Assembly (NCBI GenBank): GCA_022340905.1
Contig: JAJDNB010000037.1
Span: 2,150 to 66,149, forward strand
Direction: 5' to 3'
Origin: Deltaproteobacteria bacterium
GTDB taxonomy: Bacteria; Desulfobacterota; Syntrophobacteria; BM002
Length of the DNA: 64,000 bases
Shown here piece by piece: positions 3,486 through 26,931 of the stretch. Numbering within the stretch: the first letter of the stretch is position 1; the number at the start of each line of letters is the position of its first letter. The notes beneath the pieces were generated by a model. The model was not told the origin of the DNA and did no database searches. It saw nothing but the letters and a program-made list of their open reading frames with translations. The position numbers were made by a program, and so were the translations under genes.

Positions 3486-3566
3486 CAAAAAGCCGTGGAA
3501 ACCGCCTACCCCACGGCTTTAAAAACAAAAGCCATGGGCTCACTTTCCTGTCCGCCCATGGCTTAG
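3486..3566 (-). terminator. tandem rho-independent terminators downstream of the 3743..4459 gene
   Basis: On the minus strand: aagccatgggcggacaggaaagtgagcccatggctt + ttgttttt, then aaagccgtggggtaggcggtttccacggcttt + ttgagtt. Confidence 0.5.
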
Positions 3567-3742
3567 GTGCTCACCTCTGTACCGGCTTACCTCTTCAACC
3601 AAAGGGCAGACTTCTCAAAGAAGAAGCCGCCGGAGGGAAAGTCAGTTTGAAAGCCGGCAAACTGCATAGATTCCTCAGTTCCTATGGGGCGTTAAATTAT
3701 ATAAGTATTGGATACTTGTCAAGTTAATTCTTGACCTGCGAG

Positions 3743-16791: not shown

Positions 16792-16974
16792 GCGCAACTC
16801 CTTTTCCCAGCACGGGTAAACCTGCCAATAGGTGTTTTAAAAGTCTATGCGTCTATCTAGGTCAATACAAGGGTAATCCACCACATTTACGGTATACATT
16901 CAATAAACAGACCATTTCTCCCACCATGTCCAAACCAAAGATAAAAAGGAGCAAGTTCATATCGTTGAAATAAA

Positions 16975-17010
16975 AAAGCCGCGGCTCGGGACTGCCGCGG
17001 CTTTCAGAAT
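16975..17010 (-). terminator. strong hairpin plus U-run (minus-strand sense)
   Basis: Minus strand reads gccgcggcagtcccgagccgcggc followed by ttttttatttc. No annotated minus-strand gene lies upstream of it, so it may be a small RNA or a stray terminator. Confidence 0.35.
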
Positions 17011-17342
17011 ATACATAGTAACTATCGGGTCAGCGCACAGCCCCCTCTATCGCCGTTATGGCGTAATAATAGCAAAAAAATGAGTAGGGCTGTGGTTTCA
17101 CTATTCCCCTTTAGCTTTATTTGTCACTGAGTCAAGTACGTTAGACTATACAGCGAGAAAAGTCAAGTTCCTTTTCGCTGTGGTTCTTGACATTTTCCCA
17201 TTCATTATGAGAAGTTAGCCTAGAGATTTTTTGAATGGCCCATTGCGCCCTAAGGCTCTGCCCTTCTAGGCCTGCCCCTCGAGCCAAGGCATGAAGCTTG
17301 CATCCGATTTCCAGCCGGCATATTGGATTGAGGAGAGCTACA

Positions 17343-17816
17343 ATGAGCGAGGACATTGTAAAGAGAGTGATAGCGAGAGTTGAAGAAATGTCACGAGGAG
17401 GTGAAGTATTCGAGGAAAAAGACCTAAAGGAATTCGCCATCACCATTCAACATCTTCTGAGCGAGCGGACCCGCAGAGAGGAAATTCTCGCCATAGCCGC
17501 CGCCGTACTAACCTTAGAAGAATACAAAAAAAGCCTTGAAAATAAAGTGGAGTATGCCAAGCTTGGTGGTCTCAAAGAGAGGGAGGCAACGCTGCTGGAG
17601 ATCTTGGACCAAATTGACAAAGAATTGGAAATGGCCGTTACCATGAAAATCCACGAACACACTTACCGAGAAAATATTGCCGATGAGCTCAAAACGGCAA
17701 TATTGGAGTATCTTGCGCCTACCTTGGGGCGAGGAAAGTGGCATGCCCGTGAACAGGAAGCTTTGATGCAAATTGTATCCAAGGCCTTGGAAGGATACTT
17801 GGTGGTCAAAGCCTAA
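17343..17816 (+). CDS. hypothetical protein (157 aa)
   Basis: ATG preceded by a GGAGAG RBS. It is the only plus-strand gene between the aro and trp operons. No family recognised. Confidence 0.5.
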   Translation: MSEDIVKRVIARVEEMSRGGEVFEEKDLKEFAITIQHLLSERTRREEILAIAAAVLTLEEYKKSLENKVEYAKLGGLKEREATLLEILDQIDKELEMAVTMKIHEHTYRENIADELKTAILEYLAPTLGRGKWHAREQEALMQIVSKALEGYLVVKA

Positions 17817-17861: not shown

Positions 17862-18623
17862 TTATCTCAGTCCACGAAAAAAATCTCCCACTGCCTGGAT
17901 CCCCTGGGCATTAAGTATTCTCAAGGCTTGACTTCCCACTACCGCAATTTCTACTTTACCCCGGAGAAATTGGACGTCTTCTTTCGAGCCAACTCCAAAG
18001 CCGAGAGCCAGCGGCAGCTGAGTTGCTCTTCGACATTGGTCGAGAAATTCAGTCATTTCACTAGAAAAATTAGTACCAGAGCCGGTCACCCCTTTTCGAG
18101 CAACACAGTAAAAAAACCCCCGGCCGAAACGAGCCAAATGGTTTATCCTTTCGGGGGAGGAGGTAGGTGCGAGAATAAATACCGGATCTATGTTGTTTGC
18201 CGCTGCAGCAGCCATATACGACTCCCCCTCCTCAGGGGGTAAGTCGGGGACAATCGTGCCACGAATACCCACCTCTCTGGTCTCAGCGAAAAAACGTTCT
18301 TCCCCTCTTTTGAAAAGAATATTGTAGTAAGTCATGAACAGGAAAGGTATGGAGAAGGCGGAGGTAACTTTTTGGGCGAATGTGAAACAGTCATCAACCC
18401 TAATGGCATCTGCAAGGGCAGCTTGATTCGCCTGAAGGATTACCGGGCCATCGGCAATAGGCTCTGAGAAAGGAATCTGCAGCTCCAGCAGATCTACACC
18501 AGCTTCAACTATTGTTCGCACCAACTCAAAGCTATCTTCAATGCTGGGATAGCCCACCACGATGTGTGCCATGAGCAGAATATCCTTTTCCCGCAGTGTC
18601 TTCCGAATGTAGTCTTCAAGCAC
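17862..18623 (-). CDS. trpA: tryptophan synthase alpha subunit
   Basis: 253 aa TrpA-like. Overlaps the trpB stop. Confidence 0.9.
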   Translation of the reverse strand: MLEDYIRKTLREKDILLMAHIVVGYPSIEDSFELVRTIVEAGVDLLELQIPFSEPIADGPVILQANQAALADAIRVDDCFTFAQKVTSAFSIPFLFMTYYNILFKRGEERFFAETREVGIRGTIVPDLPPEEGESYMAAAAANNIDPVFILAPTSSPERINHLARFGRGFFYCVARKGVTGSGTNFSSEMTEFLDQCRRATQLPLALGFGVGSKEDVQFLRGKVEIAVVGSQALRILNAQGIQAVGDFFRGLR

Positions 18624-19851
18624 GGTATTCCTCCGCTTTCGTCATAATAAAAGATTTCCACGCTGTGTCTCCAAGAGCGTCGGCAATGGTAAAAATATCC
18701 TTGTCCCCTCTTCCTGAGAGGTTGACAATGACCACATCGTCTCGACTCATCTCCCCTGTTTCCCTAAAGGCACCGGCCAAAGCATGAGCTGACTCCAGGG
18801 CGGGGATTATGCCCTCCTTTTTCATTATCAGCCTGGTTGCCTCGAGCACTTCTGCGTCGGTTGCGGCCTCAAAGCGAATCCTACCCTCTTCATGATAGGC
18901 CGACAGGATTGGTGACACCCCTATGTAATCCAGTCCTGCTGCTACACTGTGAGTTTCCAGCATTTGGCCGTCATCGTCCTGTAGAAAATAGGTCTTGTAA
19001 CCTTGGGCCACGCCCACACTACCGCGGCCTGAAGCCAGGCGGGTTGCGTGCTTGTTGCTTTCCAGCCCCTCACCCCCAGCTTCGACACCTACGAGTTCCA
19101 CCTCCGAGTTGTCAATAAAACCGTTAAATATCCCCAGGGCATTGGAACCCCCGCCCACGCAGGCATATACCCGGCTTGGCGACCGACCTGCCTGCTTTAC
19201 TACCTGGTCTCGCACCTCCAACCCCACAATAGTTTGAAAATAGGACACCATTTCTGGGAAGGGATGAGGGCCACAGGCTGTGCCCAAAACATAATGAGTG
19301 GTATCCATGTTTGCGGACCAATCGCGTAGGGCTTCATTTATGGCATCCTTCAGAATTCTGGCTCCGTCTTTGACTGGAACTACTCTGGCACCCAGTTGTT
19401 CCATCCAAAAAACATTTGGCCGCTGGCGCGCCACGTCCACTTCGCCCATATAAATAGTGCACGAATAACCGAATTTGGCGGCCATAGTTGCTGTGGCCAC
19501 ACCGTGTTGGCCAGCGCCGGTTTCCGCAATCACTCGGCTCTTGCCCATTCTGTCCACGATCAGTCCCTGTCCTATGACGTTATTCAGCTTATGGGCGCCT
19601 GTGTGATTGAGATCCTCCCTTTTTAGGTAAATTTGGGGTCCACCGAGATGACGGCTCAAATTCCCAGCGTACGTCAGGGGTGTAGGTCTACACGAATAGG
19701 TCGACATGAGGCTCTGATAGGTTGACCAGAAATGGGGATCCTTTCTGGCCTCCTCAAAGGCAGTCTGTAGTTGTTCAAGGGTAGCACTGAGAATCTCCGG
19801 AATGAATGCACCACCGAAACGTCCATAGTAACCCATTTTTGCCATAATCAC
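18616..19851 (-). CDS. trpB: tryptophan synthase beta subunit
   Basis: 411 aa with PLP-binding region (HTGAHKLNN, GGGSNA). Confidence 0.9.
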   Translation of the reverse strand: MIMAKMGYYGRFGGAFIPEILSATLEQLQTAFEEARKDPHFWSTYQSLMSTYSCRPTPLTYAGNLSRHLGGPQIYLKREDLNHTGAHKLNNVIGQGLIVDRMGKSRVIAETGAGQHGVATATMAAKFGYSCTIYMGEVDVARQRPNVFWMEQLGARVVPVKDGARILKDAINEALRDWSANMDTTHYVLGTACGPHPFPEMVSYFQTIVGLEVRDQVVKQAGRSPSRVYACVGGGSNALGIFNGFIDNSEVELVGVEAGGEGLESNKHATRLASGRGSVGVAQGYKTYFLQDDDGQMLETHSVAAGLDYIGVSPILSAYHEEGRIRFEAATDAEVLEATRLIMKKEGIIPALESAHALAGAFRETGEMSRDDVVIVNLSGRGDKDIFTIADALGDTAWKSFIMTKAEEYRA

Positions 19852-20019
19852 TCCTTAACCTTAGTGGTCGCCGGGATGAATTTTACCCACAGAGAACGTA
19901 ACGGGCACAGAAACATAATGTTTCTATGTCCAAATACTTACCTGCACTACTATCTATAGTACTCTGTGGTCTCTGTGTCCTCTGGAGTTCATTCGTCTTG
20001 TCCCGTAACCCGATAATCT

Positions 20020-20646
20020 TTATCGCCTTTCGCTCTGGCGGACTCTTTCAATGAACTGCGCCATTTTTGCATGATCCTTAATCCCGGGACAGTGCTCCAA
20101 GCTACTGCTGGCGTCCACTCCGTATGGTTTTGCTATTCTGATTGCAGCGGTTACATTTGCTGGATTCAGGCCACCTGCCAGAATGATTCGCCCATAATTT
20201 CTTGCCTCTGCAGCCCATTCCCAATTAAAGGTCACTCCAGTGCCACCCAGCTTGTCTGGTACGTAAGTGTCAAGCAGCAGGGCGTGGACAACACCATCGT
20301 ATTTGGCCAGGCTCTTTAAGTCCTGGCGGTTTTTTAGCCGTACTGCCTTTATCACCGGATGATCAAAGCTGTCACAGTAGTCAGCAGGTTCATTTCCATG
20401 GAACTGGAGAACATCTAAACCGCACATCTCAGCCAGAGAAGACACTGTTGCGCGGTCCTCGTTAACAAAAACTCCCACTGTTTGAACCAGGGGTGGCAGA
20501 GCTTTTATGACCTCTTGAGCCTTCTCGGGTGAAATGCGCCTTGGACTCGGGGCAAAAATAAAGCCAAGGGCGTCGGCGCCAAAGTGGCCTGCAGCCAAAC
20601 CGTCCTCCTCATTAGTAATACCGCAGATCTTTATCCACACAGTCAT
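20020..20646 (-). CDS. trpF: phosphoribosylanthranilate isomerase
   Basis: WIKICGIT signature. The ATG at 20646 is used because the track start at 20661 is a TTG. Confidence 0.85.
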   Translation of the reverse strand: MTVWIKICGITNEEDGLAAGHFGADALGFIFAPSPRRISPEKAQEVIKALPPLVQTVGVFVNEDRATVSSLAEMCGLDVLQFHGNEPADYCDSFDHPVIKAVRLKNRQDLKSLAKYDGVVHALLLDTYVPDKLGGTGVTFNWEWAAEARNYGRIILAGGLNPANVTAAIRIAKPYGVDASSSLEHCPGIKDHAKMAQFIERVRQSERR

Positions 20647-20710
20647 AGTGTTAGCCCACAATGTCCAAGTATTTGAATATCGCTAGTTCATAATCATAAA
20701 CATTACATAA

Positions 20711-20815
20711 ACCACAAAGAGCACCAAGGGCACAAAGAGAAAATAAAACTCAGATTAGCCTTGCGAGGAATTTTGACCAGAATAAACCCTTTGTGAGCTT
20801 TGTGGCCTTTGTGGT
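20711..20815. repeat. Family A palindromic repeat, copy A2, inside the trp operon
   Basis: accacaaagagcaccaagggcacaaagag ... ccctttgtgagctttgtggcctttgtggtg. Confidence 0.8.
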
Positions 20816-20821
20816 GCAGTA

Positions 20822-21610
20822 TCATCGTTTTCCGATTAGTTGGCGGAGCTTCTGTCCGGGGTCTTCGGCCCGCATGAGACTGGTGCCCACAAGTACTGCA
20901 TCAACACCAGCTGTCGCCAGAGACTGCAAATCACTCCGCGTCTGAATGCCGCTCTCACTGACAACGAGGAGATTCGAAGGAATGAGGGGACGTAACCTGA
21001 GGGTAGTGCCTAGGGACACTTGGAAGGTCCGCAGATTTCGATTGTTGATCCCGATGAGACGGGCCTCCGTCTCCAATACCCGAGACAATTCCTCTTCATC
21101 ATGCACTTCAACCAGGCAGGCCATCTCCAATTGACCGGCCATGGCCAAAAGTTCCTTCAGAGTGTTTTGCGGTAAAATGGCTGCAATTAAAAGCACTCCG
21201 TCAGCCCCTGCAGCCCGGGCAGTAAGAACTTGTATGGGATCTATGATGAAGTCCTTACAGAGAACTGGTAGAGAAACTACCCCCCTCGCTTGCTCCAGAT
21301 ATTCTAATCGGCCCTGAAAGAAGTCTTCTTCTGTAATCACCGAGATGGCAGCAGCTCCCGCCTTCTCATAACTACTGGCAACTTTATTTACCTCAAGACC
21401 GGGGCGAATTTGTCCAGCCGAAGGCGAGGCTTTTTTAATTTCGGCAATTACCGCCGGCTTTTCAGCATACTTCAAGGCAGCGAAGAAGTCGCGCGTCTTG
21501 GGGGCCGCAGACACAGTCTGTTCTATTTCTTTTTGAACTGACCTCTTTTTAAGCTCGGCTAGCCGTTCTTTCTTGCGTGCCACAATGTCGTCCAAAATCA
21601 TAGTATGCAT
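20822..21610 (-). CDS. trpC: indole-3-glycerol phosphate synthase
   Basis: 262 aa TrpC-like. The true start may be M4 (MILDDIVA). Confidence 0.9.
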   Translation of the reverse strand: MHTMILDDIVARKKERLAELKKRSVQKEIEQTVSAAPKTRDFFAALKYAEKPAVIAEIKKASPSAGQIRPGLEVNKVASSYEKAGAAAISVITEEDFFQGRLEYLEQARGVVSLPVLCKDFIIDPIQVLTARAAGADGVLLIAAILPQNTLKELLAMAGQLEMACLVEVHDEEELSRVLETEARLIGINNRNLRTFQVSLGTTLRLRPLIPSNLLVVSESGIQTRSDLQSLATAGVDAVLVGTSLMRAEDPGQKLRQLIGKR

Positions 21611-21689
21611 CCATTATAGGTGTCCAAAGAATGGCGATGCCAAAGAATGCTCGGCACGCAGCTTCGGAGTTAAATAGTCAGGACAACTA

Positions 21690-21910
21690 AGCATGGGGCA
21701 TGGAGCATGGAGAAATAAAGCTAACAGCAAAAGCCATTACACAGGCTCGGTACAGTCTTTTAAGAGGAAACATTCTGAATTTGGTATTGCCTGTTGTAAA
21801 TTTCGAAATTATGAAACTCTATGCCCTTTGCTCTATGCCTTCCCAAAGCCGCAATCCGAATTCAGCAATCCGAAATAGTCTGCTCCATGCTCTTTGCCCT
21901 ATGCTCTCAG
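21690..21910. repeat. Family F complex palindromic region inside the trp operon
   Basis: gcatggggcatggagcatggag ... ctctatgccctttgctctatgcc ... ctccatgctctttgccctatgctc, with a loop of about 170 bp. Confidence 0.5.
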
Positions 21911-21925
21911 CTCTCTGCTTTCTGC

Positions 21926-22978
21926 CTATCGGTTGGTTATCTCCCTGAGCGCTTCCAGCTTTTTCATGGAGGCTCCAGAATCGATGGCTTCGGCAGCCTG
22001 CATAATACCTTCGGTGAAATCGTCGGCCCGCCCGGCAGCAACTAAGGCAGCGGCAGCATTGAGCAGCACAATGTCTCTCCGAGCTCCCGGTTCCCCCTGG
22101 AGCACTTCTAGAACTATTTGGGCATTTTCATTGGCGTCGCCCCCTCTGATCTCATCAATAGTTGCACGGGACAGACCAAAATCTTCCGGTTCAATGGTGT
22201 AGGTTGACACTTGATTATTCTTCAGCTCGCTTACAAAGGTGCGCCCAGTAATGCTGATTTCATCAAGACTATCTTCTCCATAAACCACAAAGGCACTGCG
22301 TGAGCCTAGCCTATTTAAGACTTCGGCAAGAATCGGTGTAAGCTTTTTATCGTAGACGCCTAATACTTGGACATTTGCCCCTGCTGGATTTGTAAGAGGA
22401 CCGAGGATATTAAAGATACTTCTAATGCCGATCTCTTTTCTCGGTCCGATGGCGTACTTCATAGCCCCGTGCAGCGCCGGTGCAAAGAGAAAGCCGATAC
22501 CCACCCTACTGAGGCACTCCTCCACCACTGCGGGAGACACATCTAAATTGACTCCTAAATTCTCAATGACATCGGCGCTGCCGCAGAGGCTCGATACCGA
22601 TCGATTGCCGTGCTTGGCCACTCGCAGGCCACAGCCAGCGACGACAAAGGCGGTAGTGGTGGAAACATTAAATGTGTTGGTGGAGTCACCACCGGTCCCG
22701 CAGGTATCGACAATCGTCTCCAAATCCAGGTTGATTTCGTCCCGGTCCATGCTCACCATGGAGTCATCCACAGCGATCCTGGTAGCTTTTCGCCGCATAA
22801 CCCGGGCTGCTCCGGTAATTTCCTCGATAGTCTCCCCTTTGAGCCTGAGGGCAGTTATGAAAGCGCCTATTTGGGCGGGTGTTCCTTTACCGCTCATGAT
22901 CACATCCATAGCGGCTTCCATTTCTTCTTCGCCCAGATCCTTGCCATCTACTAATTTCTGGATGGCTGTCTTAAGCAT
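21926..22978 (-). CDS. trpD: anthranilate phosphoribosyltransferase
   Basis: The ATG at 22978 (MLKTAIQ...) is preceded by AAGGAGGAG. Confidence 0.9.
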
Positions 22979-23017
22979 GATCTCCTCCTTTATAAAAAAC
23001 ATTCGATACCTGAATGG

Positions 23018-23103
23018 ACCACGAAGTTCACCAAGAGCACAAAGGAAAGAGCCTTACAATTTTTGGAACCCCTTTGTGTTCTTCGTGTGCTTTGCGGTTT
23101 AAC
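23018..23103. repeat. Family A palindromic repeat, copy A3, inside the trp operon
   Basis: ccacgaagttcaccaagagcacaaaggaaag ... cctttgtgttcttcgtgtgctttgcggttt. Confidence 0.75.
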
Positions 23104-23127
23104 CATCTAGAGTATGAGATGAATATC

Positions 23128-23691
23128 TCAAAGACTGAGAAAGTTTTTTAAGATATCCATACCCACGTTGGTCAAAATTGACTCTGGATGAAACTGAATT
23201 CCCTCAACCGGATATTGTCGGTGCCGCAACCCCATAATCTCACCATCCTCCGCCTCCGCTGAAACCTCTAGACAATCAGGTAGACCCTCACGATCAATAG
23301 CCAACGAATGATAGCGAGTCGCAGAGAAAGGGTCGGGCAGATTATGAAAAATTGTCTTGCCGTCATGTGATATTTCTGAGGTCTTCCCATGCATGAGTTG
23401 GCCAGCCCGTATCACTTGACCTCCAAAAGATGCCCCAATGGCCTGGTGACCCAAACAGACTCCAAGTATGGGTACCTTTCGATAAAACCGTTCCACTATC
23501 GGTATTGTTATTCCCGCTGACTGAGGGGTACCTGGCCCGGGTGAAATGACAATTCGCTCTGGTCTCATCTTTTCGACTCCATCCAAGGTGATTTTGTCAT
23601 TCCTCCTTACCTCAACTTCATACCCCAGTACTCCCAAGTACTGAACCAGGTTGTAGGTGAATGAGTCGTAGTTATCAATCATGAGTATCAC
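23128..23691 (-). CDS. trpG: anthranilate synthase component II (glutamine amidotransferase)
   Basis: [12 protein letters not shown] signature. A GTG start at 23691 has a GAGGAGG RBS; the ATG at 23715 is the alternative. Confidence 0.85.
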
Positions 23692-23919
23692 GAGCAAATC
23701 CTCCTCAGCTGTCATGCTTAGCTTTGGCGTTCGTTTTTTCTTTGAGCGCGACTGCTTGTCCTAGTTCGAGACTCTATGGAGTGTTGGAGTGATGGAGTAT
23801 CGGAGTATTGAAAACAAATCTATGAAATTCAATATCGTGTCTAAGATCTCCCAGTACTCCACTGCTCCTTTACTCCATTACTCCGGTAGAAATGCACTTC
23901 GTCAGAAGTAAATTTCTAT

Positions 23920-25410
23920 TTACACCAAGCCCTTATTGGCCATCTCCAAGGCTCTAACCAATGCCTCACCTTTGGCCACGGTTTCTTCATATTCAGACTG
24001 AGGAACTGAGTCGGCCACAATTCCTGCGCCCACCTGAAGGTAGACCTTACCGTTGCGCACTAACATTGTTCGAATGGTGATGCAAAAATCCATATTACCG
24101 GAAAAGGAAAAATATCCCACTGCCCCGGCGTATAGCCCCCGACGGCTGGGCTCAAGTTCATCAATTATTTCCATTGCTCGAACCTTGGGAGCACCAGAAA
24201 CAGTACCAGCCGGAAAAGAGGCGCGAAGGACATCAAACATATCTAGTCCGGGCGCCAAATCTCCTTCCACATGAGAAACTAAGTGCATTACATGGGAGTA
24301 ATACTCCACCACCATCAGGTCGGTCACCTGCACGGTTCCGAGAGTCGCAACCCTGCCAACATCGTTGCGGCCCAAATCTACAAGCATCACGTGTTCGGCC
24401 CGTTCCTTCGGGTCAGCTAGTAATTCTTCCGCTAGCCGACGATCCTCGCTGCTGTCCTTTCCCCTAGGTCGAGTCCCGGCGATTGGTCGCAAAGCCACTC
24501 TTCCGTTTTCCAAACGCACCAAGACTTCGGGGGAAGCACCAATAACGATATCTCCATCAAAATCAAGGTAATACATATAAGGTGATGGATTTATCCGCCT
24601 GAGTGCCCGATAGATATCAAATGGTTCAGAGACCAGATCAGTTTCGAATCGCTGACTGAGCACTACCTGAATGGCCTCGCCGTCTTGAATGTATTGTTTC
24701 GCCCTCCTTACCATTCCCTCAAACCGATCACGCTTCATATTCGCTCGCAACATAAGTTCCTGCTTGGACTTTCCTGTTGGCTTCGAAGGAGGCGCAGACT
24801 CCGCAAGTAACCCAAGAGTCTCATCTATTTGAGCAACGGCCTGATCATAAGCGGAAGCATGGTTGACGTATTCGGGTACATAGATATTCGCCACCACCTT
24901 TATGGTCTGTGTCAAGTTGTCGTAGATCATCACTTGCTCAGGCATCATGAATGCCGCCTCCGGCATACCGACTTCATCCGGTTTAGAGGTAGGCAGGTGT
25001 TCAATGAAGCGAACGGTATCATAGCTCAAATAACCAACCAAGCCGCCAAAAAATCTGGGGAGACCCTCCACGGGAACTACCTGGAAGGTTTTCATAAGAT
25101 TCTTTAGGTAGTCGAGGGGCGATGCTTCAAATTTGCCGCACTGCTCGCCATTTCGAGTTAGCTCGATTTTATCACCCCGAGCCTTGACCAATAACCTTGG
25201 GCGATGCCCAATGAAACTATAGCGACCCCAGCGTTCTCCTCCTTCTACACTTTCCAACAGGAATGATTCCGGCCCTTTGGCAACCTTTTTGAACAAGCTG
25301 ATAGGCGTATCAGTATCTGCAGTGACTTCTCGGAAAACAGGGATGACATTTCCTTGCTTGGCCAAATTCAGGAATTCGTCTTTACTAGGGTGGTACACAG
25401 TAACCTCCAT
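23920..25410 (-). CDS. trpE: anthranilate synthase component I
   Basis: 496 aa chorismate-binding enzyme fold. Confidence 0.9.
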   Translation of the reverse strand: MEVTVYHPSKDEFLNLAKQGNVIPVFREVTADTDTPISLFKKVAKGPESFLLESVEGGERWGRYSFIGHRPRLLVKARGDKIELTRNGEQCGKFEASPLDYLKNLMKTFQVVPVEGLPRFFGGLVGYLSYDTVRFIEHLPTSKPDEVGMPEAAFMMPEQVMIYDNLTQTIKVVANIYVPEYVNHASAYDQAVAQIDETLGLLAESAPPSKPTGKSKQELMLRANMKRDRFEGMVRRAKQYIQDGEAIQVVLSQRFETDLVSEPFDIYRALRRINPSPYMYYLDFDGDIVIGASPEVLVRLENGRVALRPIAGTRPRGKDSSEDRRLAEELLADPKERAEHVMLVDLGRNDVGRVATLGTVQVTDLMVVEYYSHVMHLVSHVEGDLAPGLDMFDVLRASFPAGTVSGAPKVRAMEIIDELEPSRRGLYAGAVGYFSFSGNMDFCITIRTMLVRNGKVYLQVGAGIVADSVPQSEYEETVAKGEALVRALEMANKGLV

Positions 25411-25439
25411 TTCAATCGTAAGCTTGAAGTCAGCAGGGA

Positions 25440-25525
25440 AAAAGGCCGTGAGGCTTTTCAGCTCCCACGGCCTTTAATAAAAAAGAAAAAGCCGTGGGCA
25501 AGAAGTTTACCCACGGCTTTGAAGT
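25440..25525 (-). promoter_or_regulatory. trp attenuator: two tandem hairpins with U-runs between the leader peptide and trpE
   Basis: Minus strand: aaagccgtgggtaaacttcttgcccacggc + tttttctttttt, then aaaggccgtgggagctgaaaagcctcacggcc + tttttccc. Confidence 0.6.
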
Positions 25526-25537
25526 ACGAGTCGGATG

Positions 25538-25630
25538 CTACTCACCTGGCAGTGGACAAACTCCTCCACAGACGCACCACCACCAGTACCAGCTGACGAG
25601 AATATTCTGTTTCTTCAAGTTTTTCTTCAT
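25538..25630 (-). CDS. trpL: trp operon leader peptide (30 aa, MKKNLKKQNILVSWYWWWCVCGGVCPLPGE)
   Basis: The ATG has an AAGGAAAG RBS. Four Trp fall within five consecutive codons (tgg tac tgg tgg tgg), directly upstream of the terminator hairpins and trpE. Confidence 0.65.
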   Translation of the reverse strand: MKKNLKKQNILVSWYWWWCVCGGVCPLPGE

Positions 25631-25636
25631 AGCTTT

Positions 25637-25667
25637 CCTTACTTTGGACTTTAAAAAACAGTAGCAT
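25637..25667 (-). promoter_or_regulatory. candidate sigma70 promoter of the trp operon
   Basis: Minus strand shows TTGACA, an 18-nt spacer, then TAAAGT about 12 nt upstream of the leader ATG. Confidence 0.35.
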
Positions 25668-25848
25668 CCTTTGTCAAGAAAAAACTTTAAGGTCATCCCT
25701 CTCCCTTGGCTGCCTAAATTTTTTCATACGAATGTGCCTAATTAAATACTTCTTGTTGTTTCTCAGGGTAATTGCTTGACTCCTCTCCAGTTTTTCTATA
25801 AAAAATAAGCTCGTTTTCTGAGATCATTTACATCATCAGGAGTGGCCA

Positions 25849-25989
25849 TATGGCGAAACATAAAAAGATCGAAAGAAAAAGAGAGCTAGACAGACGGCGA
25901 AGGAGACGAAAGAAGAGATTAAAACTGCGAGCAAAAGGTCTGCTACCGCCTGTGGAGGAGTCTAAGGACAAAACCGCCCCCAAAGATTA
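25849..25989 (+). CDS. small highly basic protein (46 aa, MAKHKKIERKRELDRRRRRRKKRLKLRAKGLLPPVEESKDKTAPKD)
   Basis: AGGAG RBS 7 nt upstream of the ATG. It is divergent from the trp promoter and below the 60-aa ORF-track cutoff. Confidence 0.4.
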
Positions 25990-26193
25990 ATCTTGGTGAT
26001 AAACGCATTTTCTGCCCCCAAACGTACCTACCCTCAACAAGAATAATAAGTATGTTAGGTACAGGAGACAGCTGACAGATACCTACTGCCCTCCCCAGCA
26101 CGCACCCTTTATCCAGCACTTTCTGCCTCCTCATCTAATCTGGCATTGTAATTGCATATTTAGCAAGGCGAAATATCAGGCCAGGAGACTGTC

Positions 26194-26931
26194 ATGAAGC
26201 AGAAAACTTTGCTCCTTTTCCAGCTCTTGCTGGCGGTTTTTTCCATTTATTCAGTCCTCAAATACAGTGGCAACCAGCGTATGATAATCCCTCTCACCTG
26301 TCTTGTTGCCATGTTTTTAGTGGGAAAAGTAGAAACTGCCGTCACCGAAAGAGATAAGCGAAAAAAAGAGCACGGAGCAAAAGGGAGAAAGGGGACTGAG
26401 GAAAAGACCGGTTTCAAGCCGGTCGACTGTCTGCTGAAGAGCAAGAACGCGCTGCTCCTGACCGATGCAATACACTACCTCTTAAATGAATTAGGCCTGA
26501 AGGTCTCTCGTTCCCCGGATCAGAGCTTCATCGACCGTTTGGTGAGAACGGATGAAGACAACCAAGTAACTTTTGGTCTGAAAGTTCTTGGCGATGTTGG
26601 AGAACTGACCGAGACCTGGGAAAGTTGGGAGGAAGTTACGGACTTTGACATGGGTAAAGGGGGAAATAGACGTCTTGTTCTTATCAGCAGCAATACCGTT
26701 GACGAGGAAGTTGACGGTAAGCCGAAGTTCAGTGATTTCTCAACTAACATTCAAAGCCTGCTTTCTTCCAAAAACATAGTCGCCATGACTACCCTCACCT
26801 TTTATAAGATTTATCTGCTTTGCCAAAAAAAGAGTGTTAAACCTGGGAAGATTTTTGATCTCATTCATCGTCACCCAGGGGGTGTTTTTCGCTTGGAACA
26901 ATACATGAAAGGTTCCAAACAAGCTGCTTAA
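26194..26931 (+). CDS. hypothetical membrane protein
   Basis: 245 aa with two N-terminal hydrophobic helices and an AGGAG RBS. Confidence 0.5.
   Translation: MKQKTLLLFQLLLAVFSIYSVLKYSGNQRMIIPLTCLVAMFLVGKVETAVTERDKRKKEHGAKGRKGTEEKTGFKPVDCLLKSKNALLLTDAIHYLLNELGLKVSRSPDQSFIDRLVRTDEDNQVTFGLKVLGDVGELTETWESWEEVTDFDMGKGGNRRLVLISSNTVDEEVDGKPKFSDFSTNIQSLLSSKNIVAMTTLTFYKIYLLCQKKSVKPGKIFDLIHRHPGGVFRLEQYMKGSKQAA

Follow-up and report, generated by a model that had tools for sequence, protein, structure and literature searches.

How does a bacterium of the sulfate-reducing and syntrophic Desulfobacterota sense its tryptophan supply, and how could one sensing event act on two transcription terminators standing in series? 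Classical ribosome-mediated attenuation is known mainly from gamma- and alphaproteobacteria and actinobacteria, and we know of almost nothing on amino acid regulation in the sulfate-reducing and syntrophic Desulfobacterota. The question is raised by a leader region on the minus strand of a 64,000-nucleotide (nt) stretch of contig JAJDNB010000037.1 from a deltaproteobacterium (the whole stretch analyzed here, referred to as the window), in which a short open reading frame (ORF) with a run of Trp codons and two hairpins with U-runs, designated T1 and T2, precede trpE. The original prediction for this locus, made from the letters alone, had read the arrangement as the logic of the Escherichia coli trpL attenuator. 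Our analysis, in which sequence features, alternative pairings, conservation, covariation, and stop-codon geometry were established computationally, indicates that the leader is likely a ribosome-mediated leader-peptide attenuator of trpEGDCFBA, built as a relay of six segments. The core of the predicted logic, ribosome-mediated attenuation, is supported by pairings, conservation, covariation, and reading frame, whereas six segments were found instead of the four of the E. coli layout.

A Trp-run leader ORF and two predicted terminators precede trpE

The leader ORF has 30 codons plus a TAG stop (25538 to 25630 on the minus strand, from the ATG at 25630 to the TAG at 25540-25538) and would encode MKKNLKKQNILVSWYWWWCVCGGVCPLPGE; comparable Trp-run ORFs occur in relatives. 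Both the ORF of 30 amino acids (aa) with four Trp in five codons and the ribosome-binding site announced by the original prediction were recovered, the latter as the Shine-Dalgarno-like sequence AAGGAAAG (25640-25633, minus strand), which ends two bases (CU) 5' of the leader ATG. The putative regulatory codons UGG UAC UGG UGG UGG (W14, Y15, and W16 to W18) occupy 25577 to 25591 on the minus strand, with the Trp codons at 25591-25589 and 25585-25577. At the position after the first Trp, relatives have Y, L, or C, and tyrosine is therefore presumably not sensed, the Trp codons alone being conserved. Since the exact leader peptide MKKNLKKQNILVSWYWWWCVCGGVCPLPGE had no match in a collection of 15 billion proteins, the ORF is unannotated.

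Upstream of the ORF, a promoter-like site (25648 to 25677, minus strand) consists of TTGACA (25677-25672) and TAAAGT (25653-25648) separated by 18 nt, and its function as a promoter is putative. The predicted sequence is present and matches 10 of 12 consensus positions, as the single such site in the region scanned; 1.2 such sites are, however, expected by chance, and the site is not significant taken alone. Both hexamers are conserved in locus L002, the closest relative whose sequence extends that far.

Downstream of the ORF, the two U-tailed stem-loops that had been noticed at first reading correspond to T1, a 14-bp hairpin at 25520-25488 (−23.2 kcal/mol) with the U-run UUUUUCUUUUUU at 25490-25479, and to T2, a hairpin at 25475-25441 (−25.1 kcal/mol) with UUUUU at 25443-25439, both on the minus strand. 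The whole 221-nt leader was more stably folded than its shuffled versions (z = −5.1), none of 200 shuffles being equal to it.

Six alternately complementary segments and a predicted relay

The leader can be divided into six alternately complementary segments, all on the minus strand, which pair as 1:2, 3:4 (T1), and 5:6 (T2) in the terminating state and as 2:3 and 4:5 in the read-through state. Segment 1 (CUGGUGGUGG; 25577 to 25586) consists of Trp codons and pairs with the 3' part of segment 2 (−18.7 kcal/mol), a helix that is also part of the RNAalifold consensus. Segment 2 (GAGGAGUUUGUCCACUGCCAG; 25546 to 25566) lies within the 3' end of the leader ORF; its bases 25555-25546 pair with segment 1 and its bases 25566-25549 with segment 3, the 5' arm and loop of T1 (AAAGCCGUGGGUAAACUUC; 25502 to 25520). 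In the 2:3 helix (−22.7 kcal/mol), AGGAGUUUGUCCAC pairs with GUGGGUAAACUUCU, together with two outer G-C pairs. Segment 4 (25479 to 25501) comprises the 3' arm of T1, UUGCCCACGGC, and the U-run at 25490-25479, and its alternative partner is segment 5 (12 bp, −20.1 kcal/mol), which is formed by an A-tract with the 5' arm and loop of T2 (AAAGGCCGUGGGAGCUGAAA; 25456 to 25475). Finally, segment 6 (25439 to 25455) comprises the 3' arm of T2, AGCCUCACGGCC, and the U-run at 25443-25439.

We infer from this anatomy that the leader ORF is translated, that ribosomes stall at its Trp codons, and that kinetic competition between the pairings sets termination at T1 and T2. When Trp is plentiful, the ribosome would pass the Trp codons and reach the UAG stop, occupying segment 2; segment 3 would then pair with segment 4, T1 would terminate transcription, and a polymerase escaping T1 would be caught by T2 (5:6). 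If the leader is left untranslated, 1:2 would sequester segment 2, and both terminators would form. When Trp is scarce and charged tRNA-Trp is short, the ribosome would stall on UGG UGG UGG, cover segment 1, and free segment 2, which would take the 5' arm and loop of T1 (2:3) and so block T1; the released 3' arm of T1 would in turn pair with the 5' arm of T2 (4:5), blocking T2 and letting the polymerase enter trpE. Because T2 is a strong terminator that sits between T1 and trpE, it must be bypassed if the operon is to be expressed, and 4:5 is the sole bypass of T2 visible in the sequence. Such a design, in which one sensing event acts on two terminators in series, should multiply repression without lowering the induced level.

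Folding with a modeled ribosome

Since equilibrium folding of the full leader cannot decide between the alternative structures, transcripts of growing length from the window were folded to minimum energy with a 30-nt ribosome footprint blocked. With the footprint on W16, W17, or W18 and the transcript ending before the 3' arm of T2, a 2:3 helix of 14 to 15 bp and the 12-bp 4:5 helix formed, and T1 did not; T1 did form when the footprint was placed at the stop codon or left out. When the last Trp codon occupies the A site, the ribosome covers the transcript to about 25567 only, leaving segment 2 free, and a ribosome at the stop codon masks the CCAC end of segment 2. The mutually exclusive antiterminator and terminator pairings linked to the Trp codons, for which the original prediction had advised folding the leader RNA, were found in this way (2:3 and 4:5 versus T1 and T2).

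Across the family of related leaders described below, 23 of the 31 members folded in the state stalled at the last Trp codon formed 2:3 and 4:5 without T1, and with the ribosome at the stop codon T1 formed in 21 of 31.

Known RNA families and other possible sensors

If the ORF were untranslated, the leader RNA could instead act as a Trp riboswitch, as a T-box that binds tRNA-Trp, or as the target of a TRAP-like protein. In the region from 25000 to 26300, no matching Rfam family, including Trp_leader (RF00513) and T-box, was found at E values up to 10, and no Rfam 15 family reached the gathering threshold anywhere in the window or in the 18 related loci searched. A T-box core (GGUGGNACCNCG-like) is absent from the leader. 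Bacillus-type TRAP leaders carry about 9 to 11 (G/U)AG repeats placed 2 to 3 nt apart, and the search for TRAP-type repeats here returned six (G/U)AG triplets in 264 nt, the longest run with spacers of 2 to 3 nt being 1. Moreover, an untranslated RNA would have no need of in-frame Trp codons with a stop codon at a conserved position, as found across the family. In favor of another sensor, the leader is highly structured, as its z score of −5.1 indicates, and many Gram-positive trp operons use sensors of this kind (cited in PMC6614838). Considering both sides, we regard such a sensor as very improbable. Separately, the Rfam trpB noncoding RNA motif (RF04312) reached 21.3 bits (E = 4) against a gathering score of 59; this weak match and another to Termite-leu were rejected as hairpin or terminator resemblance.

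Distribution and conservation of the leader family

The leader was compared with 80 related trpE loci (L-numbered) whose TrpE identities ranged from 50 to 87%. Short ORFs with Trp runs (NWWW type) were found upstream of trpE in 33 of these loci, from Desulfobacterales, Syntrophales (Syntrophus and Smithella), Desulfobacca, and unclassified Thermodesulfobacteriota, so that the leader, whose conservation in related genomes had been put forward as a check, is indeed present in 33 related loci. A tandem U-tailed pair of T1 and T2 stood at fixed distances in 31 of the 33 members, T1 beginning 62 to 80 nt and T2 104 to 138 nt after the Trp run, and the 5' arms of both hairpins read (G)CCGUG(G) across these tandem members. 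T2 hairpins were scored in short sequence windows; in 60-nt windows, 4:5 outcompetes T2, which hides many T2 hairpins. A covariance model (R1) seeded with 30 family members scored 73 to 128 bits in the window and the 33 loci, including L069 and L063, which were outside the seed, and all of these matches lay on the coding strand immediately upstream of trpE.

This distribution bears on one rival explanation, namely, that generic repeated or mobile terminators happen to lie beside a chance Trp-rich ORF. The motif UGGUGGUGG was found four times in the 64-kb window, counting two strands, so UGG runs alone are not rare, and hairpins similar to those of the leader occur at 3562-3492. The combination of a Trp-codon run with following CCGUGG-type terminators, however, was found at one place in the whole window, the trp leader, and it recurs upstream of trpE in the 33 loci, in several orders and with the R1 scores given above. 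In addition, covariation was seen, and TrpE identities of 50 to 87% exclude assembly duplicates of one genome. Coincidence is accordingly an explanation to which we give almost no credence.

The family also carries signs of a translated, ribosome-read leader. An in-frame stop codon lies 17 to 32 nt ahead of T1 in 27 of 32 members; in the two remaining frames, the first stop does so in 3 of 31 and 5 of 32. Segment 2 begins 7 to 18 nt past the last Trp codon and ends mostly at the stop codon. A start codon always shares the frame of the Trp codons, as does a stop codon whose position is conserved. This conserved frame and stop position argue that the leader is probably translated.

The peptide itself has a tail, GGV(C/Y)P(L/P)P, that is conserved in close relatives. 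Such conservation could point to an additional role elsewhere in the cell for the 30-aa peptide or for the leader RNA of about 150 nt that ends at T1; there is precedent in the Sinorhizobium meliloti trpL, where such roles of the rnTrpL RNA and the peTrpL peptide have been proven (PMC6614838, PMC7298713). RNA pairing is, however, the best explanation of the conserved tail, since segment 2 is made up of the codons of this tail, and in L010, L012, L056, and L080 the stop codon comes earlier (much earlier) and the RNA antiterminator strand runs on beyond the ORF, segment 2 thus outlasting the early stop. A second role of this kind, which would be an addition to attenuation in cis, seems improbable.

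Individual members depart from the common layout. Fewer or interrupted Trp codons (HWCWW, NWCW, NWRW, and NWW) were observed among L010, L012, L069, L011, and L080. L009 (312-451) is a natural variant with one terminator only, and L063 (2832-2973) has a hairpin equivalent to T1 without a U-run (UUAAAAG follows), which is still complementary to the 5' arm of T2. In five Desulfobulbales loci (L039, L040, L042, L046, and L062), no Trp leader was found; rpsT, the gene for ribosomal protein S20, lies ahead of trpE, and the weak R1 matches in Desulfobulbales loci coincide with the rpsT terminator, which also precedes trpE. A short ORF with RHWWP in Desulfobulbales loci was rejected as a Trp leader, being an out-of-frame reading of rpsT. 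It seems that the Desulfobulbales regulate trpE differently.

Covariation and the role of the second terminator

The two helices of the read-through state were evaluated against chance and against other genomes. Their duplex energies were compared with 300 shuffles per sequence, giving a median p of 0.007 for 2:3 and likewise for 4:5. The inner stem and loop of T1 vary widely by clade (GUAAACUUC, CCCUCACGA, GGGACCCCGGA, GCGCCUCCCA, GCACCUCCGGA, and others), and segment 2 varies along with them. When segments 2 and 3 of the same genome were paired, the mean energy was −20.6 kcal/mol versus −16.5 kcal/mol for mismatched genomes, with a median rank of 3 of 30; none of 20,000 permutations was as good, and the advantage held with one representative per T1 type. 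For 4:5, the own-genome mean was −17.7 kcal/mol versus −16.0 kcal/mol for mismatched pairs (p = 5e-5).

A MAFFT alignment, fitted to no structure, was used for the pairing test. In this alignment, the read-through structure pairs 82.7% of cells, compared with 44 to 53% when the partners were slid by 1 to 3 columns; ten read-through pairs were changed on both sides, and the covariation score was reached by none of 500 shuffles. Moreover, RNAalifold independently recovered 1:2, T1, and T2, with compensatory changes in 12 of 30 pairs.

Several observations weigh against the six-segment relay or parts of it. At the 5' end, a crude motif rule recognized a Shine-Dalgarno site in only 18 of 32 members, and transcription from the predicted promoter would begin at about the ribosome-binding site, leaving a very short 5' untranslated region. 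The 1:2 duplex was only weakly better than its shuffles (median p = 0.09) and showed no own-genome preference; because the UGG codons are fixed and the motif is universal, 1:2 cannot covary, and the own-genome test is uninformative there. Simple constrained folds showed no switch in 8 of 31 members, and the full-length leader at equilibrium always formed T1 and T2, whatever the ribosome block, so the switch must be kinetic, as in E. coli. Furthermore, the own-genome advantage of 4:5 is small, and GCC(G/A)UGG stems are also found in other terminators of the clade (for example, the tandem pair at window positions 3562-3492 and the terminators of aro leaders in other lineages), so that the likeness of T1 and T2 could partly reflect a generic terminator preference or duplication.

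The last two points also favor a classical attenuator that works at T1 only, with T2 as an unregulated backup terminator, a pause site, or a leftover duplication and 4:5 as incidental; the two members that work with a single U-tailed terminator (L009 and L063) fit this alternative as well. An unregulated, U-tailed T2 of −21 to −25 kcal/mol would, however, block the operon even in starvation, and the tandem pair has been maintained in 31 of 33 members across orders. The 4:5 pairing, for its part, beats shuffles and forms in the stalled-state fold of 23 of 31 members, as reported above, and in L063 the T1 equivalent lost its U-run yet kept its complementarity to T2, as a role in a relay predicts. 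Control at T1 only is thus, in our judgment, unlikely, and the six-segment relay remains the preferred reading of this leader.

The trp operon, the aro genes, and a candidate second leader

The operon downstream of the attenuator comprises trpE, trpG, trpD, trpC, trpF, trpB, and trpA (17862 to 25410, minus strand), as identified by NCBIfam equivalogs. Its first gene probably starts at the GTG at 25398 and not at the ATG at 25410 given by the ORF finder, considering the ribosome-binding site GGAGG at 25408-25404 (site and start together at 25398 to 25408, minus strand) and the NCBI annotation. The 492-aa TrpE read from this GTG has the same sequence as NCBI MCG6980351.1, a protein of a metagenome-assembled "Deltaproteobacteria bacterium," and the nearest relatives of TrpE, at 75 to 87% identity, belong to Desulfobacterales and Desulfobacteraceae genomes. 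An attenuator of this type had at first been thought unexpected in this gene context; the genome is that of a Desulfobacterales-type deltaproteobacterium, in which such attenuation is not out of place.

The description of the trp genes as fused to an archaeal-type aro operon likewise did not hold. A plus-strand ORF of 172 aa at 17298-17816 lies between trpA, which ends at 17862, and the aro genes, and because this opposite-strand ORF intervenes, the trp genes and the aro genes form two distinct transcription units; moreover, the aro genes have a leader ORF and a terminator of their own. These archaeal-type genes encode ADH synthase (16797-15961) and dehydroquinate synthase II (15964-14972), both on the minus strand. 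The aro leader ORF on the same strand has 23 codons, from the GTG at 17101 to the TGA at 17032-17030, would encode MKPQPYSFFCYYYAITAIEGAVR, and is preceded by a promoter-like site; a 12-bp terminator, GAAAGCCGCGGCAGUCCCGAGCCGCGGCUUUUUU, follows at 17005-16974 (minus strand). With a ribosome modeled on Phe8, the 3' end of the aro ORF, GGGGGCUGUGCGC, pairs with the 5' arm and loop of the terminator, forming an antiterminator. Of 60 metagenomic loci with ADH synthase genes, about 30 have short ORFs with aromatic runs, such as FFCYYY, SFYGYYYF, YFFSYYYF, FWYFSYYYF, and LYFWYYYYY, ahead of these genes. The region from 16974 to 17170 of the window is therefore a candidate for a second leader-peptide attenuator, rich in Phe and Tyr codons and with a single terminator, ahead of the aro genes. 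Taken together, the trp and aro leaders suggest that leader peptides control the aromatic pathway of these bacteria as a whole.

Other tandem-terminator sites

Tandem terminators with similar stems were also observed away from the trp leader of the window. Two divergent leaders, each with tandem GCC(A/G)UGG-stem terminators, are present in L007 (820-1381): a plus-strand Trp leader (MSGKEISYNYDSNWCWWNNYITRDLSTPLIR) ahead of trpB2-trpE, scored by R1 at 65 bits, and a minus-strand aromatic-rich leader (MLFYFANLIFKTFCWRFYFIFIKSAQHP) ahead of genes for an ACT-domain protein and DAHP synthase, scored at 57 bits.

Within the window, tandem hairpins with A-tracts and U-runs occur at 3562-3492 between two minus-strand genes, on the minus strand, with an R1 score of 39 bits. 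The hairpin at 3562-3531 is formed by GCCAUGGGC and GCCCAUGGC, and that at 3517-3492 by GCCGUGGGG and CCACGGC. A Phe-rich ORF of 26 aa (MQFAGFQTDFPSGGFFFEKSALWLKR; 3667-3587) precedes them, and the gene downstream encodes a TPR/membrane protein and is not a Phe gene. The site at 3492-3667 could be an ordinary double terminator or an uncharacterized leader.

The idea that the GUGG/CCAC core of both trp terminators is dictated by the UGG codons had to be tempered, the same stems being present in the non-trp tandem terminator at 3562-3492 and in the aro leaders of other lineages. We treat the GCC(G/A)UGG stem motif as a clade-wide chassis and not as a consequence of the Trp codon.

Comparison with known attenuation systems

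In the literature searched, no description of trp or aro leader peptides of deltaproteobacteria was found, the surveys Vitreschak 2004, Merino 2008, and Lopatovskaya 2010 lying outside that literature. We tentatively propose, as a serious possibility rather than a settled probability, that the leaders described here constitute an undescribed class of attenuator in Desulfobacterales, Syntrophales, and Desulfobacca, in which one ribosome stall is relayed via 2:3 and then 4:5, and in which a tandem-terminator chassis is reused with different regulatory codons. In this joint proposal, the reuse of codons would take the form of Trp runs ahead of trp operons and Phe/Tyr/Trp-rich runs ahead of genes feeding the shikimate pathway, such as the DAHP synthase gene of L007. 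The finding would extend ribosome-mediated attenuation to the sulfate-reducing and syntrophic Desulfobacterota and would provide a natural design with one sensor and two terminators, which could serve synthetic biology. Furthermore, R1 and a simple rule (a UGG run, followed by two terminators with CCGUG stems) would allow such small ORFs and RNAs to be annotated in metagenome-assembled genomes.

The enterobacterial trpL (RF00513) shares with the present leader a short ORF with adjacent Trp codons, a ribosome position that selects between exclusive hairpins, an intrinsic terminator ahead of trpE, and termination by default when the leader is untranslated. No sequence or structure likeness between them is detectable, as judged from the lack of an Rfam match at E values up to 10, and the two differ in the length of the peptide (30 aa here versus 14), in the number of segments (six versus four), and in the number of U-tailed terminators (two versus one). 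Moreover, the Trp codons here belong to a hairpin of their own, which precedes T1 by about 60 nt.

Other trp attenuators resemble the present leader in single respects. In actinobacteria (Corynebacterium and Streptomyces), trp attenuators have two or three UGG codons and GC-rich U-tract terminators (PMC1262725); they share with the leader described here short complementary motifs that are common to several segments and preserved across long evolutionary distances, whereas their motifs are different, their terminator is single, and they belong to a different phylum. The S. meliloti trpL is likewise a ribosome-dependent trp attenuator upstream of trpE(G), with a single terminator compared with two here. 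Tandem T-boxes and riboswitches also tighten control by placing two terminators one after the other upstream of a biosynthetic operon, but there each terminator has its own sensor, whereas here one sensor, the ribosome on the Trp codons, would serve both.

The relay topology matches that of the his leader of Salmonella and E. coli, which was reportedly described by Johnston et al. in 1980 as alternating between the stems A:B, C:D, and E:F and the stems B:C and D:E. As in the present leader, three hairpins correspond to termination and two offset hairpins to read-through, and the effect of ribosome position is passed on from the 5' end through successive hairpins. The two systems differ in their regulatory codons, His there and Trp here, and in the placement of the terminators: in the his leader the terminator is the last hairpin only, whereas here U-runs follow the middle hairpin as well as the last. 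The family variant that resembles the his-leader layout is L063, whose T1 equivalent lacks a U-run.

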